Made by a program: the position numbers. A stretch of 64,000 nucleotides of DNA, from positions 1,760,001 through 1,824,000 of the forward strand of contig OZ241875.1 in NCBI GenBank assembly GCA_965203325.1, read 5' to 3'. The stretch comes from a bacterium (GTDB lineage Bacteria > UBA8248). Shown here in pieces: positions 27,001-45,000 of this stretch (its first letter is position 1; every line of letters starts with the position of its first letter).

Positions 27001-30000
27001 ACAGGTGAAAAACTAAATGTAAAAATTTACGTGTTCAAAAAAGACAAAGCGAAAACTTACAAAAAAAGTGAAGGAATTCTTTTTTGCGTCAACGGTCAAA
27101 CACACGCACACGTGAGTAAAAGTTTTTTTAGAAGCGAAAAAGTTGGCCTTAGCTATCTGGCTGATTCTATTTTGATAGTTCTTGACTGTAGCAACATGAA
27201 TAAAAGAAGTAGAGAAGACCTTTTTATGAACAGCAGAGACAGACTAAATAAAGGTTTGCCTATATACAAAGAGATTATAGATGCTCTGGTCGACATGCTG
27301 AAAAATCATAAGAGCATTAGAGCTCTTAACGATAAAAGGCGTGATGAAAAATTAGGGGACCAATTAAAAGATAACAAACCTTTAGAAAATATTTTAGAGG
27401 ATTTAGTCAAAAAGAATAATATGTTGTCGAACTTGTTTCGCTCAGGTAGAGCTATACCCACTAACAAAAACAAACCAGGGCCAATCCCCAAACAGGAATT
27501 CATAGGGAAAAAATTTCCCACATTTTTTAGGTTTAAGAACAAGAAAGATGGGGATTCTCTAATAAAACCATGCCCTTTTAACTCAAGATTTAGAGTTACC
27601 TTTGAGACTGACGCCACAAACGAATATTTCAAGCGTGATATTGATCCAGGAATGTTTAACCTAAAAGTCATTTCCAATGGGGTAGGAACTCCCGCGCATA
27701 ATTTTATTGGGCCAAACTTAAGTGATGGCGAAGCAACCCTCAGTGTCAAATTACCTGACAATTTTGATGTGGGAGACCGCTTCGAGATGCGGGCTGAAAT
27801 AGACGACATTAATTGTGTAGAACCTTTTCAAAATACCATAGAAGTAATCGTAGAGAAGGAAATTCCTAAACCAACTAATCCTAATCCTTCACCACGATCT
27901 AAAAAGGAGAAAGGAGGAATAGCACTACCTAAAATTAAAAAGGTAAAGAGAGCGGAATGGGGAGAGTATGACTTCGACGAAAATTCGGCACTTCGAATAG
28001 AACGAGCTGGTGCGGAAGAAAATGAAACCTATGACTTCTTCATTAACGTAGACAATCAATATCTCCTGAGCGAGATGAGAATGACAAAAGACAATCCTGA
28101 ACTGAAACAAGCGCGATATGTTTTCGGGCAAGTTATCCTTGCTTTAGGTCTTATACAAAACCACTCCCAACGCGATAAAAGAAAAAGTGCGGAACAAGAA
28201 ACCGAATACAATGCAGAAGACAATGGAATAGAAAGCTCAGTTGCACAGGTTGGGCAAGCCATATCACCGGTAATTATTCCAATGATCGAATCGTTAGGCA
28301 CTTTAGACTTAGAATCCATTCAGGCGTTTGCGTCCGATATCTATGATGACGATTGAAAATTAGACTTGAGTCTATGAAATAGAACGACTTCTTGGCTGGA
28401 ACGAAGCTTGCCTTTTGAATGTGCGTACCATTTTCTATTTGGCACAATTCGCCACGCTCTTTGGTCTTTAGTATTCGCGAGAGAAGGATATTTGATTTCT
28501 TTAAATCCACAAACACGCATTTCATTAAGATATTTAGGTAGCTGCCACTCAGGGTCAGAAAAGGCTACAAGTTGCACAACTATTGTTTCACTGTCTGAAA
28601 TCTTTGCAAGCGAAGAAAAAGAAGAGCGCAGATTTTTGAAATAATCTACTAGGTATTTCTGCTCACGATTCCCCAATGTGTAATAAGTTTCCCCATTTCC
28701 ATCCAAGGTTCCTGTGATCCAGTACGGTGCGGGAGTTTCTCTCCGACCTTGTATTTGCCATCGATGATATAGGACATGGACTCCAGGGTATGGTGGTGAA
28801 GTTAGAATTAGCTTTGGGGCTTCAACTTTGTTTTTGGAAAAAAAAGTTTTCAGATTAGAGGCGGGCAGACATAAGCAAACAGGATTGATACTCGATTTTG
28901 ACAACCAACTAGGCTTTGTTTCTTTTGCGGATTCTTTGAGAATGGTGGCTCCTGAAACCATTCTCTTGAAATAAAAAATCAGTTTTTCACGAAACTCTTT
29001 TGCTGATGGGATAGCTATTCGAGAATCCAGCGCCCATTGACCTGTCTTAAGAAGGACGCAACGTGCAAAGTTTCTTTGGCGTTGCGTTTTAAGAGAATTT
29101 AACTCAGAAATTGCGAGTGCCAAAAGTTTTCGTATCGGCCAAGTTTGCTTTCCGTTGATATTACGAAGGTATCCATTCTTTTCCCAAGTTGTTTGCAGGC
29201 TTGAAGGTTGACGAAGATTTAATTTGCTTGTGAGTGTCGCAGCCCAAGCGGACAAATCAGAAGCATCATTTTTTGACAACGTAGTTGTCTTCACCTTAGA
29301 TACGAAAATCGACAATTCATTTATATCAGAACCGATTGATTTTCTTCCCAAAGATTGTGCTTCCACTAAAGCTGTTCCGCCCCCCATAAATGGATCAAGG
29401 ATTAAGTCTCCTGGCTCCGTGAACATTTTGATGGCAACTCTAGCAAAGCTTGGTGAACATCGCGCGGGGTAACGATAAAAATCATGAGTCAATCCCGAGA
29501 CCCACGAATGATCATGGATGGCTTTAAGAAAGTCATCCTTGAGTCCATGCTTCATGTAGCTATCTCGCTCTGGACGGAGATGAGATAAACAGAGTTTACA
29601 AGTTTAAAGGTTGTGAATATGAAACTCCACTAGCGACCATCCATTTCCAATAACATTGTAAACAAACGAAATTATTTATAGTTATGCCCGACTCCGAAAT
29701 CAACCACTAACCTCCCGTTTGACACCCCCCTCTCAACTCCCCCCTTCCCTCCTCACGCATTCGCGTTTATCCTTATCCCCATCGTTAACCGGAAGCCATC
29801 GGGTGGGCGGCGATGCCGAGAAGAGTTGCCATTATCGGTGCGGGGGTCTCGGGACTGGGGGCGGCCTGGGCGCTGAACCGCCACCCCGAGCGGTTCGATT
29901 TCAGGCTCTTCGAGGCGCAGGAACAGGTGGGCGGCAACGCCGTCACCGCCGACATGCCGCAGGACGACGGCACCTCGATCCCCTTCGATATCTCCGTCAC

Positions 30001-42000: not shown

Positions 42001-45000
42001 AGTTCGGAGGGGCGAGGCCGGCGGGAGAGCCGTCCGCGCCATCGCCCGCGCGGGTTTCGCCGGACACGAAGAGAGAAAGGACACGCCACGCCATGGAAAT
42101 AGGCAAACTATCGAAAGAGCTCAAGGATGCCTATCAAGAGGGGAACGTCACCCGCCGCGTGCAAGACTTCGAGGGCTGGATCGACCGGGCGGCGGAGTCC
42201 GACGGCGCGAGCGGGTACGACCACACCGAAACGGTGAAGGCCTACTACGACCTTTGCAGCGGTTTCATGGTGTGGGGTTGGGGCGAATCCCTGCATTTCG
42301 CGCCCCTCTCGCCGAACGAGAGTCTGGAGGACTCGAAAGTCCGGCATCAGCGGCTGATGATCGACAAACTGGAGTTGCAGAGGGGCATGACGGTGATCGA
42401 CGTCGGCTGCGGCATCGGCGGCCCGATGCGCCGCGTCGTCCGTGAGGCCGGCGTCCGGGTCGTCGGGATCAACATCAACAAAATCCAGCTGGAGAGGGCG
42501 AAGAGGTTGAACGCCGAGGCGGGGCTCGACCACATGATCGATTACGAGGCGTGCAGCTTCATGGATATGAGCACCATCGGGGACGAGGCGTTCGACCGGG
42601 GCTACGCCATCGAGTCGACGTGCCACGCGCCGGACAAACAACGCGCCTTCGCGGAGATATTCCGCGTCCTGAAACCCGGCGCCCTGTTCTGGGGCCAGGA
42701 GATGTGCCTGACGGAGAAGTTCGACCCGAACGACGCCCGGCACCGGACCATCAAGCGGGAGCTCATGCGCGGCATTGCGCTCAAGGAGGTCGCGACGTTC
42801 GGGGAAGTGAACCAGGCGCTCGAAGCGGCGGGATTCCAAGTCGTCGAAGGGATGGACCGGGAGGTCCGGGAGGGGCCGTCCACACCGTGGTATCAACCCA
42901 TGGAGAGTCGGCACGGGACGCTGGGCAACGCCTTGCGCAGGCTTCCGCAGGGCCGCAGGGCGGTCCTCGCGGGCTCGAAGCTGGCCGAGGTGGTCCGGCT
43001 GTTTCCGAAGGGTTCCGCGGAAGTCGTCCGGCTCCTGGATCGGACCGCGGACGCCTATGTCGCGGGCGGCAAATCGGGCATCTTCACGCCGCTGTACTGC
43101 TTCCTGGCCCGCAAACCCCTTTAGCCTCGATCCGCGCCGCACGCGGAAAAACGCCCGCCGACGCAGCCGGACAGAACTTGCAAATATCTGGAAATAAGGG
43201 AGTTGCTAGAGGGCGCGCTCGCGCTTTTTGATGTCGGCCATCACCTTCGTGATGCCGCGCTTGGCGATGATCTTGAGGCCCTTCGCCGATACGCGCAGCT
43301 TCACCCAGCGCTTCTCCTCGGGCAGGTAGAAGCGCTTCACGTGCAGGTTCGCCTCGAAGCGCCGCCTCGTCTTCTTGTGCGAGTGCGAGACGTTGTTGCC
43401 GTACATCACGCTCTTGCCGGTGACGGCGCATCGCTTGCGCGCCACGGTGTTCTTATAGGTTTTCATCTATTTCGTCTCCCGAAACGGCTCGTGGCTTCGG
43501 CACAATTTACAGTACTTCCTGAATTCGAGCCGATCCGGCGTGTTGCGCTTGTTCTTGGTGCTCGTGTAGCGGATCTTCTTGCAAGTCGTGCATTCGAGTT
43601 GAATGTTCTCGCGCATCTCGAAACCTCAACGAAAATCAACGTCTTGGGACGCATCGGCGCATCCCCGGTCCACAAAGAAGCGAAACCATAGCCAACCACA
43701 GGAAAAAAGGCAAGTCGCGCGCGAGGTATTTTGTTCGTCTCTTATGCGCTAGAATCACGTGTTCCAATTCATCGAGAAGCGGATAAGGCGCAAGGCGTTT
43801 TTTCGAGGCCCGCGCCATCCCGAAATCCAAACGTCGAAGGAGAGAGCACAGTGGCTAAAATCGTCGCATACCTGGGGCTCGGCACCATGGGCGGAGCCAT
43901 GACCAACAATCTTCTCAAAGCGGGATTCGTGGTTCACGGATACGATCCGTCGCCGGAGGCGCGCGCACGGGCGGAGGAGGCGGGAGCGAAAACCTTCGAC
44001 TCCCCGGCCGAGGCGGCTTCTGAAGCCGAGGTCATCTGTTCATCCGTACCCGAAACCAGGGACGTGCACGAAACCTATCTCGGAGAAAAAGGCGCGCTCC
44101 TCACCTCGAAGGATGGCGTCGTCTGTTTTGATTTCTCCACCATCGCTCCCAGCGGCAGCCAAGACATTGCGCAGCAAGCGGCGGAAAAGGGCGCGATTTT
44201 CCTCGATACGCCCGTGAGCGGCAGTGCTCCCAGCGCCATTAGTGCGGAGCTCAACGTGATGGTCGGCGGCGATGAAGCGGCGATGAACGCACACCGCGAC
44301 GTTCTCGAGGCGGTGTCGGAGTCCGTCAACTATTTCGGGCCGAACGGCGCGGGCCTGCACATGAAGCTCGTGGCCAACCAAATCGTCTCGGTGTTTTTCT
44401 CCGTGGTGTCCGAAGGACTCACCTTGGGCGAACGCTCGGGCCTCGACCCCGTCGAGATGATGGAATACCTGAAAAACGCCTCGATTCCGAAGATTCTGGG
44501 CATCAAGGGCTCCGCCCTGGCGAGCCGGGACTACACGCCGTTTTTCAGGATCGACTTGATGTGCAAGGACCTGCGCCTCATCTCCGAGATGGCCGAGGCC
44601 GCGACGACGCCGACGCCCTTCGCAGCACTTGCGAGGCAGGTATACATCGCCACGTCGGCCATGGGCTTCGGCGATGTGGACCAAAACGCCGTGCGCGAGT
44701 TTTTCGATAAAACCGCCGGGCTCAGCGCTTGATATTTCGCGACTGAAGGGGCTGTTGAAAAAGTCCGCACAGGATCCTGTAAGTAGAGGGTTTGTAGGGA
44801 CAGGTCGCGACCTGTCCCTACGGCGAACGATCTCGAAAGTCAGGCAAAGGCTTTTTCAACAGCCCCCTGAAGTCTAAGTCGCTCTCTTGAAAAACCCCTC
44901 GACGGGGAGTGGCGCGCCCACGCCCTGCGCCTTGGCGCGCCGGTAGAGTTCCGCGCCCAGGGCCACGTCTTCTATCGCGACGCCCTGGCTCAGGAACAGG

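Follow-up and report, generated by a model that had tools for sequence, protein, structure and literature searches.

Sterol gene clusters from sponge metagenomes are among the closest described systems. The Aplysina cluster includes two SMTs and one gene matching both ERG1 and ERG7, then CYP51, ERG24, sdmA and sdmB (Brown et al. 2023, PMC10070321, Supplementary Data 1). For sterol genes of sponge symbionts, both horizontal transfer and purifying selection have been described before in this literature, which also covers the Ircinia 'CSGs' (PMC9531527). The available text of Brown et al. also raises methylation of a host-acquired sterol by a symbiont SMT for Chlamydiae, but there neither for sponge symbionts nor with support from complete genomes lacking an oxidosqualene cyclase (OSC). 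Proteins combining GPP34 and P450 domains (GPP34_L) are described, in the part of the source available, as confined to sponge-associated lineages of many phyla, with phagosome modulation via PI4P binding as their proposed role (PMC11706023). Among transport systems, the HAE3 cassette AmeABCD of Castellaniella defragrans, which handles hydrophobic isoprenoids, encodes together an RND protein, a LolA-superfamily periplasmic protein and a DUF1302-type outer-membrane protein (PMC6394551). In BstABC of Methylococcus and HpnN, an MMPL/RND inner-membrane protein is encoded next to genes for sterols or hopanoids, together with partners in the periplasm and outer membrane; BstB is a phosphonate-binding-type PBP and BstC a TRAP T-component-like protein (PMC10942540).

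The locus described here lies in a stretch of 64,000 nucleotides (the window) from the genome of a UBA8248 bacterium. Profile searches and an ORF check of the window identified nine intact genes at positions 29813-43124 (Table 1); all the genes that the survey's finding had named for this 13-kb cluster were found in place. Four encode cytoplasmic enzymes, namely an SMT-family methyltransferase, a KshA-like Rieske oxygenase, a GPP34::P450 fusion and an LkcE-like flavoenzyme (FADox), and five make up an envelope set of an HAE3 RND pump, a LolA-like protein, a TPR protein and two outer-membrane proteins.

Table 1. Features of the cluster, in window coordinates
Feature	Position	Strand	Support
FAD-dependent amine-oxidase-family enzyme, LkcE-like, 452 aa	29813..31171	+	Pfam Amino_oxidase 62.2 bits
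LolA-like periplasmic lipid-carrier protein, 272 aa	31384..32202	+	PF17131 205.7 bits; N-terminal hydrophobic signal
Putative outer-membrane beta-barrel, 419 aa, weakly DUF1302-like (AmeA-like)	32199..33458	+	PF06980 16.9 bits, under cut-off
GPP34::cytochrome P450 fusion, 682 aa	33539..35587 (ORF extends to 35695)	-	GPP34 96.1 bits, p450 143.5 bits
Conserved motif copy 1 (TGGGGCCATTATGGC...)	35687..35719		About 100-130 bp upstream of P450 start
TPR protein, 246 aa	35959..36699	-	TPR_11 + TPR_14; signal peptide
Remnant of second, canonical SMT gene (C-terminal fragment)	36806..36919	-	Sterol_MT_C 30.8 bits; between TPR and RND
HAE3/MMPL-type RND inner-membrane transporter, 771 aa, 12 predicted TM segments	36907..39222	-	MMPL 112.8, Sterol-sensing 32.9, Patched 26.1 bits
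Conserved motif copy 2	39344..39376		About 120-150 bp upstream of RND start
59-nt inverted-repeat element (MITE-like), divergent intergenic region	39463..39608		Arms 85% complementary
Outer-membrane beta-barrel protein, 310 aa	39899..40831	+	OMP_b-brl 46.9 bits; signal peptide
KshA-like Rieske non-heme oxygenase, about 343 aa	40970..42001 (ORF from 40895)	+	Rieske 67.0, KshA_C 79.4 bits
SMT-family methyltransferase, non-canonical subfamily ('SMT1-type'), 343 aa	42093..43124	+	Sterol_MT_C 60.1 bits + class I MTase domains

The cluster contains the same gene families as the sponge-metagenome sterol clusters (PMC10070321; PMC9531527), and the Aplysina cluster is colinear with two loci, L059 and G004, that both carry orthologues of the window SMT and GPP34::P450. 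However, the available text of those papers reads such clusters as de novo synthesis, whereas the window genome lacks the genes that form and demethylate the nucleus. The fusion has the two-domain architecture of GPP34_L and shares its confinement to sponge-associated lineages of many phyla, but is here a near-constant neighbour of the SMT and Rieske oxygenase genes, which points to lipid chemistry. The envelope set resembles AmeABCD in its RND, LolA-type and DUF1302-type components; it differs in that no AmeC-like gene was seen, in a DUF1302 match under the cut-off and in its additional TPR and OMP_b-brl proteins. With BstABC and HpnN it shares the logic of an inner-to-outer-membrane conduit, but neither the BstB nor the BstC family is present in the window cluster, and HpnN models score far under their cut-offs on the window RND protein (63 bits). 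The HAE3 model TIGR00921 is also under its cut-off on this protein (144 bits), which has 12 hydrophobic segments.

FADox has LkcE as its top PDB match (E 1.6e-26) and the Rieske oxygenase matches KshA (E 9e-24); the former was rejected as HpnE (28 bits, cut-off 283) and the latter as an SdmA equivalog (39 bits against 600). The GPP34::P450 fusion carries the heme motif FGFGTHTCLG and is weakly similar to CYP51 (E about 1e-19); a signal peptide was found neither in this protein nor in FADox. The LolA-like protein matches PDB 3bk5 (E 1.7e-80), whereas for the TPR protein neither a PDB relative (E<=0.001) nor a match to BstC was found. The DUF1302-like ORF has a signal peptide, a C-terminus ending in TYNF and 83-99% conservation across seven congeners; its AF2 model is mostly beta-strand but unreliable (pLDDT 36.6).

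The methyltransferase is assigned by motif alignment to a non-canonical SMT subfamily, with YYDLCSGFMVWGWGESLHF as Region I (in short, FMVWGWGESLHF) and LKPGALFWGQEM as Region IV. According to a 2025 preprint, T78 and 84GWGXXFHF91 are conserved in every SMT active in vitro; the window enzyme has S78, M81, V82, W83 and L89 (yeast numbering via the motif alignment). Since it departs from the Region I consensus of functional SMTs, '24-alkylation of a host sterol' is an assumption, and its substrate or regiochemistry may differ from those of canonical SMTs. No demonstrated activity of SMT1-type enzymes was found in the literature. Aplysina gene 9 (35% to ERG6; PMC10070321) is probably of the same type. 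Orthologues of the SMT1-type occur at 73-98% identity in genomes labelled as many phyla, and the earlier count of nine of the 22 congeners with orthologues at 88-98% identity was reproduced.

In the window genome (one contig of 4,392,711 bp), all enzymes for forming or demethylating the sterol nucleus are missing. Profile searches found no squalene epoxidase (SE) and no SQHop_cyclase_C above the cut-off, with just two matches of 14-15 bits, and a congener SE::OSC used as a tblastn query had no match at E<=1e-3, upholding the reported absence of both the epoxidase and any oxidosqualene or squalene-hopene cyclase. CYP51-like, SdmA-like and SdmB-like genes are also absent from this contig. The cyclase-less cluster is nevertheless under purifying selection and not decaying: between this genome and G013, which likewise lacks OSC, none of the nine genes is truncated or interrupted by a stop, and dN/dS values lie at 0.06-0.40 (LolA-like protein 0.06, Rieske 0.07, SMT 0.12, RND 0.16; flanking control gene 0.18), in a comparison that rests on dS of 0.05-0.19.

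The enzyme cassette recurs in genomes labelled as more than 10 phyla, as judged from record titles. OSC is missing from 32 of the 33 complete chromosomes of other phyla that carry an SMT1 orthologue (73-83% identity), and 25 of the 33 have no full-length cyclase of any kind. Across 59 loci from other phyla, each 19 kb or longer, the SMT has GPP34::P450 no more than 10 kb away in 56 cases, the Rieske gene in 49 and FADox (75-87% identical to the window protein) in 28; FADox is counted as a member of the conserved cassette. In the commonest arrangement in these phyla, GPP34::P450 immediately precedes the SMT and is encoded on the same strand. The window fusion is just 40-45% identical to the SMT-adjacent copies.

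These observations make salvage and tailoring of an exogenous sterol, as originally proposed, the best-supported reading, held here with moderate confidence. In its favour are the missing nucleus genes, the intact and selected cluster, the generality of the pattern and the sponge matches described below; the unusual Region I, a generic sterol-sensing match, the export function of HAE3 pumps, the presence of HpnCDE and the decay of a second SMT weigh against it. The cluster would be a working module for sterols or sterol-like lipids in a bacterium unable to make the sterol nucleus. The SMT1-type enzyme would methylate the lipid, the KshA-like Rieske oxygenase and GPP34::P450 would oxidise it, and the LkcE-like flavoenzyme would introduce or remove a double bond. 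An AmeABCD-like envelope-spanning set (one or two outer-membrane barrels, the LolA-like carrier, the TPR protein and the HAE3 RND pump) would carry it between the outer and inner membranes. The substrate would most likely be extracellular, from the sponge host or from neighbouring bacteria with an epoxidase::cyclase fusion. We infer the sterol substrate, the sequence and chemistry of the reactions and what becomes of the product, as well as transport into the cell, since the HAE3 pumps characterised so far, HpnN and AmeD, are exporters. As most cassette carriers in many phyla lack nucleus synthesis, the unusual sterols of sponges may partly stem from symbionts reworking sterols taken from outside the cell.

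It is possible, but rather unlikely, that the cassette acts on an endogenous acyclic isoprenoid such as HpnCDE-derived squalene, the SMT1-type enzyme being a triterpene methyltransferase whose product the RND set exports to the outer membrane. The alga Botryococcus has SMT-like squalene methyltransferases, and the non-canonical Region I and the export function of HAE3 pumps would fit. The genome encodes the squalene-synthesis genes HpnC, HpnD and HpnE (the HpnE equivalog at 302 bits, cut-off 283); the HpnC/HpnD pair is present in 21 of the 22 congeners, though a cyclase is found in five alone, and SQS_PSY genes occur in 31 of the 33 complete cassette chromosomes, two having none. However, congeners that lack the cluster have HpnCD just as well, G057 and G076 have the SMT but neither SQS_PSY nor a cyclase, and the Rieske partner carries a steroid-type KshA_C domain. 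The cassette also sits inside de novo sterol clusters of cyclase-bearing genomes: on a single contig of G004 the order is FADox-SMT2-SE::OSC-CYP51-like-ERG4/24-SdmA-like-SdmB-like-(198-aa ORF)-GPP34::P450-SMT1, which includes orthologues of three window genes, and the same association is seen in L059, L126 and L133 (metagenome and Nitrospirales loci).

An improbable alternative is that GPP34::P450, perhaps with its neighbours, is a host-directed PI4P-binding effector that blocks phagosome maturation, its link to sterol genes being incidental. The available text of PMC11706023 finds such fusions in sponge symbionts alone and proposes modulation of phagocytosis, but its main text mentions neither sterol nor methyltransferase. 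The lack of a signal peptide and the near-constant position beside the SMT noted above argue against an effector, as do G004 and G001, in the latter of which the fusion adjoins SE::OSC.

That the cluster is a functionless leftover of a de novo pathway, awaiting decay after loss of the epoxidase::cyclase island, is very improbable. The reported ~1200-aa cyclase frames in five of the 22 congeners were recovered and are SE::OSC fusions; the G001 copy is part of an island bordered by integrase and transposase genes, to which the window genome shows no synteny. The cyclases reported for all seven genomes of another family in the class were also recounted, but they score like hopene cyclases (483-501 bits, against 182-187 for the OSCs of the genus) and thus have no bearing on sterols. 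In a neighbour-joining tree of cluster genes, the genomes without a cyclase fall among those that have one, and some of the losses may therefore be recent. A short Sterol_MT_C fragment exists in the cluster as reported, yet it is the SMT2 remnant of Table 1 and not the 56-aa ORF at 39279-39449; it shares 61% identity with the C-terminal end of G004 SMT2 in a 28-aa alignment, and intact SMT2 occupies its position in G005, G006, G014 and G018. As canonical SMT2 is decayed in this genome, G013 and G008, the pathway could be eroding. Against this, the cluster persists in two other well-assembled genomes that lack OSC, G008 and G018, and its genes are under purifying selection; the 32 OSC-less chromosomes are a strong argument against a mere remnant.

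De novo synthesis by an unrecognised cyclase or by genes on an unassembled replicon, for instance a plasmid, is hardly credible. Completeness is estimated at 95.5%, and a QW-repeat segment is matched at 28 bits by a protein of 433 aa. That protein was rejected as a cyclase, being a RiPP precursor whose leader is NHase_alpha-like and of which just 40 residues fit the cyclase model; the cumulative GC skew (extremes 2.21 Mb apart, returning to about 0) is as expected of a complete circle, and OSC is likewise missing from nearly all the other complete chromosomes.

Salvage and tailoring of an exogenous sterol also accords with the sponge association: contigs from sponge metagenomes of two studies match the cluster DNA at >=99%, bearing out the earlier report of a stretch of this genome in such metagenomes. 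RNA matches are short contigs of 91-98% identity from a single RNA library without a control for contaminating DNA.

The window RND transporter was described as a Patched/sterol-sensing protein with four paralogs in all; the domains and the three other paralogs (57-59% identity) are present, but all three match Sterol-sensing/Patched equally well (33-39 bits), so the match is not sterol-specific. The 4.39-Mb genome contains just two exact copies of the 15-mer TGGGGCCATTATGGC, each of them inside the cluster, and the motif is kept upstream of the P450 and RND genes in six congeners. At the MITE-like element, contig depth is locally high and joints occur in metagenome runs.

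The cluster at window positions 29813-43124, in which the survey's finding had joined a sterol methyltransferase to an oxygenase and a transporter, is real and correctly placed, and comprises nine intact genes together with the remnant of a further gene (see table). The LolA-like, DUF1302-like, TPR and OMP proteins carry N-terminal signal sequences, and the RND transporter has 12 hydrophobic segments; neither feature is seen in the four enzymes, namely the methyltransferase (SMT1-type), the GPP34::P450 fusion, the KshA-like Rieske oxygenase and the LkcE-like flavoenzyme. Thus, the layout is one of four cytoplasmic enzymes and an envelope-spanning set. 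A Sterol_MT_C fragment had also been noted in the cluster; it exists, but as a remnant of the canonical paralog SMT2 between the TPR and RND genes, not as the 56-aa ORF taken for it.

Features of the cluster and its surroundings, in window coordinates, with dN/dS against the congener G013
Feature	Position	Strand	dN/dS	Remark
Low-GC stretch	26000-29800			GC 0.40-0.44 vs ~0.61
560-aa protein	26674-28356	+
Type II DNA methyltransferase	28341-29555	-
FAD amine-oxidase-family enzyme	29813-31171	+	0.17
LolA_like protein	31384-32202	+	0.06	205.7 bits
419-aa ORF overlapping LolA_like gene	32199-33458	+	0.11	DUF1302 match below threshold
GPP34::P450 fusion	33539-35587	-	0.27
First TGGGGCCATTATGGC copy	35687-35719
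TPR protein	35959-36699	-	0.40
Sterol_MT_C fragment	36806-36919	-		canonical SMT2 remnant
MMPL/HAE3 RND transporter	36907-39222	-	0.16
56-aa ORF	39279-39449	-		rejected as a gene
Second TGGGGCCATTATGGC copy	39344-39376
Inverted repeat, 59 nt	39463-39608
OMP_b-brl protein	39899-40831	+	0.33
Rieske+KshA_C oxygenase	40970-42001	+	0.07
SMT-family methyltransferase with Sterol_MT_C	42093-43124	+	0.12

The genome (G000), whose GC skew is as expected of a complete circular chromosome, lacks a route to the sterol nucleus, as had been claimed: profile searches find no cyclase domain over the cut-off and no squalene epoxidase, and tblastn with a congener's fusion of squalene epoxidase and oxidosqualene cyclase (SE::OSC) gives no match at E<=1e-3. 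Nor does tblastn detect an orthologue of the CYP51-like, SdmA-like (Rieske+VanA_C) or SdmB-like gene of the congener G004; the CYP51-like query finds nothing better than the P450 domain of GPP34::P450, at 24% identity, and an ERG4/24 homologue elsewhere in the genome is 29% identical. The weak cyclase matches fall in a 433-aa protein (G000:C1:3148830-3150131; L001:445-1746) that combines an NHase_alpha-like leader with 40 residues that match the QW region of cyclases (28.4 bits). This protein was rejected as a cyclase and is a RiPP precursor; a fatty-acid desaturase gene adjoins it.

The claim that 5/22 congeners carry a ~1200-aa frame with a cyclase domain was reproduced (G001, G004, G005, G009 and G014), and each frame also holds a squalene epoxidase domain. 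The G004 fusion (L034:6033-9602) is one 1189-aa protein with SE, SQHop_cyclase_N and SQHop_cyclase_C domains; SE::OSC fusions of ~1190-1270 aa occur in five congeners and in the Nitrospirales genome G052, and among solved structures the G001 cyclase comes nearest to human lanosterol synthase (E 4e-134). Cyclases are likewise present in 7/7 genomes of the sister family, as stated, but their scores (483-501 bits) are like those of hopene cyclases. Orthologues of the window methyltransferase, at 88-98% identity, again number 9/22 congeners, all five cyclase bearers among them; the bearers without cyclase are G013 (2 contigs), G008 (8), G006 (190) and G007 (320, 79% complete). G018, closed and without cyclase, keeps the cluster (L196, G018:C1:515000-534999), with a canonical methyltransferase between RND and TPR, no SMT1-type gene, and two further canonical genes elsewhere. 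Within the class, Sterol_MT_C is found in this genus only (10/46 genomes, 1/13 genera), and the cluster was therefore acquired.

A single contig of G004 encodes the flavoenzyme, SMT2, SE::OSC, CYP51-like, ERG4/24, Rieske+VanA_C and 3beta-HSD-like proteins, a 198-aa ORF, GPP34::P450 and SMT1; orthologues of the window flavoenzyme, GPP34::P450 and methyltransferase thus belong to a sterol pathway there. CYP51-like and SdmA-like genes are confined within the genus to G004 and G009. In G001, SE::OSC (L007, L025) adjoins another GPP34::P450 and another RND gene, in an island bounded by integrase and DDE transposase genes and by multi-copy repeats; a synteny search found no counterpart of the island in the present genome and no definable excision site. 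A ~5-kb segment adjoining this island (L019, G001:C1:1545500-1551100) has at least 10 matches in the present genome at 70-85% identity, and represents a large gene family or element in many copies.

The window methyltransferase matches Sterol_MT_C (PF08498) with 60.1 bits (cut-off 21.7) as well as Methyltransf_11, _25 and _31, and its Region II, DVGCGIGGP, fits the DxGxGxxGP of the class I SAM methyltransferase fold. According to the text of a 2025 preprint, T78 and 84GWGXXFHF91 are among 25 residues that all SMTs with in vitro activity share, and the sterol-binding Region I has the aromatic residues Y81/Y83. By our own motif alignment, numbered by eye, the window protein departs from this consensus with S78 and with M81, V82 and W83 in place of the usual Y, E and Y/F, and it reads GWGESLHF with L89. 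Two types of methyltransferase are found in these loci: the window type, which reads YYDLCSGFMVWGWGESLHF in Region I and LKPGALFWGQEM in Region IV and recurs in close variants in 157 matches with at least 65% identity, and the canonical paralogs of congeners, with DF[YF]E[YF]GWGxSFHF and LKPGG.F..YE[YW]. METHYLTRANSFERASE is unusual, and, judged by these motifs, the window enzyme is non-canonical; the finding is therefore chemically less certain than the survey had it. A PDB sequence search with it found no SMT structure, and the literature texts consulted, figures and main supplement aside, yielded no published activity for the SMT1-type subfamily.

The Rieske oxygenase has the KshA-type domain pair (Rieske 67.0 bits, KshA_C 79.4 bits) and matches KshA sequences in the PDB with E 9e-24 to 4e-22; against the SdmA equivalog NF052579 it scores 39.1 bits (cut-off 600), with the Rieske domain only covered. 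The 718-aa ORF of the GPP34::P450 gene places GPP34 at residues 39-241 and p450 at 255-679, a GPP34_L architecture. The copy beside the cyclase in G001 (L018:17737-19767) reads NGLDTHSCAG, and the window copy has the usual heme-binding motif FGFGTHTCLG; the two proteins are 40% identical, so several subtypes of the fusion exist. An ESM Atlas search with the flavoenzyme returned generic FAD-oxidoreductase clusters only.

Salvage and tailoring of exogenous sterol, as first proposed, is the best-supported reading of this gene content, with about an even chance of being right. The main rival, rather unlikely in our judgement, is that the enzymes act on endogenous squalene. The genome encodes squalene synthesis through HpnC, HpnD and an HpnE equivalog (G000:C1:696137-699652, L028); the HpnC/D pair is present in 21/22 congeners and any cyclase in only 5/22. 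It is unlikely that the cluster is a remnant of a de novo pathway: SMT2 is indeed reduced to a fragment in the present genome, G013 and G008 (it is intact in G005, G006, G014 and G018, and in G004 elsewhere on the contig), but between the present genome and G013, both without cyclase, each of the nine genes aligns over its full length and is free of stops, with dN/dS of 0.06-0.40 at dS of 0.05-0.19. The flanking dehydrogenase used as a control gives 0.18. The counts are small (18.5 synonymous and 7.5 non-synonymous substitutions in the methyltransferase gene), with a picture consistent across 4,000 codons. The cluster genes give the neighbour-joining tree (G008,((G006,((G000,G013),G005)),((G001,L036),G014))), where L036 is a further locus; several gains or losses are therefore needed, the order of which is not fixed by this midpoint-rooted Biopython tree without support values.

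The finding is broader than the survey had supposed: the SMT1-type, GPP34::P450, KshA-like Rieske and flavoenzyme genes form a mobile four-enzyme cassette that is spread across many phyla. Of 7999 candidates scored in a protein search with the methyltransferase, 2351 are relatives at E<=0.001, and the top 120 of these are 75-92% identical. In species-representative genomes at least 559 stretches encode a relative; the record titles of the best 80 (73-98% identity) name Dehalococcoidia, Nitrospirales, Latescibacterota, Gemmatimonadota/Longimicrobiales, Rhodothermales, Binatia, Thermodesulfobacteriota, Acidobacteria, Dadabacteria, Alpha- and Gammaproteobacteria, Actinomycetes and others. Every 'chromosome: 1' record outside the genus among these best 80 was taken, giving 33 genomes. 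All 33 have one SMT1-type gene, and only four have a second, canonical-scoring one; an OSC orthologue occurs in 1/33 (G052, 69% identity, 1269-aa frame). Pfam cyclase matches are of hopene-cyclase type in six (403-487 bits), partial in two (34-37 bits) and absent in 25, and SQS_PSY genes are present in 31/33, with none in G057 and G076. Within 10 kb of the methyltransferase gene, 59 loci of at least 19 kb outside the genus hold GPP34::P450 (56/59), the KshA-like Rieske gene (49/59), the flavoenzyme (28/59, 75-87% identity), RND (7/59) and SE::OSC (0/59), most commonly in the order GPP34::P450(+), SMT(+), Rieske(-). Among 33 loci of at least 15 kb from a metagenome collection, GPP34::P450 is found in 20, the Rieske gene in 13 and SE::OSC in two.

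The 2.2-kb Rieske-SMT stretch was detected in sequencing runs of nine studies, and its share is 0.22-0.52 in the 'sponge metagenome' runs of three of them (P3, P4, P7), in a habitat scoring that left out the runs X16-X20 with small word shares. Cluster genes have matches of at least 99% identity on contigs of runs X4 and X5, one of them 1609 bases long with 3 differences. The RNA run X20 yields contigs of 169-379 nt with 91-98% identity to the LolA-like, DUF1302-like, P450, RND, Rieske and SMT genes, no more than a hint of expression, from an RNA library without a contaminating-DNA control.

The texts of PMC10070321 and PMC9531527 describe SMTs and sterol clusters of bacteria in sponge microbiomes, with their horizontal transfer and purifying selection, and read them as de novo synthesis; the complete genomes examined here, by contrast, commonly carry the methyltransferase cassette and have no means of making a sterol nucleus. 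In Supplementary Data 1 of Brown et al. (PMC10070321), the Aplysina cluster has two SMTs, 35% (gene 9) and 42% (gene 11) identical to ERG6, a gene 12 matching ERG1 and ERG7, and CYP51, ERG24, sdmA and sdmB as genes 13-16; single gene IDs match both ERG1 and ERG7 in three clusters of the published tables. This cluster is colinear with our locus L059, by which gene 9 is probably SMT1-type. PMC11706023 presents GPP34::P450 as a sponge-symbiont hallmark and proposes that it acts in phagocytosis; the words 'sterol' and 'methyltransferase' do not occur in its main text. The literature searches found nothing linking GPP34::P450 to SMT genes and no report of a general lack of cyclase in sponge symbionts that bear SMTs; more may be contained in subscription journals and supplements.

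The oldest chemical evidence for animals is side-chain-alkylated steranes (24-isopropylcholestane, 26-methylstigmastane and C31 homologues), and whether the effective methyltransferases lie in the sponge, its symbionts or both is still not established according to a 2025 paper (PMC12541326). A further reading, speculative and taken as a whole improbable, is that the cassette is sponge-microbiome-specific, mobile across more than ten phyla and borne almost entirely by sterol-incapable bacteria, and makes unconventional sponge sterols out of those of the host. A regiochemistry or substrate range new to SMTs, such as additional alkylation of the side chain, would then follow from the non-canonical Region I; 'sponge biomarker' steranes would owe their nucleus to the host and their tailoring to symbionts; and GPP34::P450 would be a sterol enzyme, instead of or besides a phagocytosis effector. 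If the cassette enzymes act on host sterols, the biomarker is a holobiont product, the sponge stays in the picture and the meaning of SMT-gene molecular clocks changes. GPP34::P450, recently singled out as a symbiosis hallmark, gains a concrete, testable function, and one enzyme subfamily with a defined partner set is named for expression and assay.

The transport genes may resemble AmeABCD (PMC6394551), a cassette of HAE3, LolA-superfamily and DUF1302 proteins. The LolA_like match is clear, the RND protein scores 144 bits with the HAE3 model (cut-off 352) and the 419-aa protein 16.9 bits with DUF1302 (cut-off 23.2), and no AmeC-like gene is seen in the cluster. With BstABC/HpnN (PMC10942540) they share the conduit logic only: the Pfam families of BstB (Phosphonate-bd PBP) and BstC (T-component-like) are missing from the cluster, and neither the LolA-like nor the TPR protein has a Bst match in PDB sequence searches, the TPR protein having no relative there. 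Apart from MmpL5 (E 4e-9), the PDB search turned up nothing close to the RND protein. An AF2 model of the DUF1302-like protein with eight close orthologues has a mean pLDDT of 36.6 and an unreadable fold. Three RND paralogs elsewhere in the genome (L198, G000:C1:2936001-2956000; L197, G000:C1:822001-842000) adjoin an MpaB/Lcp-like protein of the rubber-oxygenase family and a second full-length amine oxidase, and may mark further lipid-handling loci.

The low-GC stretch just upstream of the cluster, with a type II DNA methyltransferase and a 560-aa protein without family match, is probably an inserted restriction-modification island; neither protein is matched by tblastn in any of the seven congener loci searched. 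Within the cluster, the 15-mer TGGGGCCATTATGGC has exactly two copies in the 4.39-Mb genome, one before the P450 gene and one before the RND gene, 100-150 bp upstream of the start, and is kept at the same places in six congeners; we read it as a candidate shared promoter or operator element. The 56-aa ORF, which has no Pfam match, looked conserved because this motif is conserved. The divergent intergenic region also holds a 59-nt inverted repeat, 85% complementary and with G/C-rich ends, where contig depth and joints are locally high in metagenome runs, as for a multi-copy MITE-like element.
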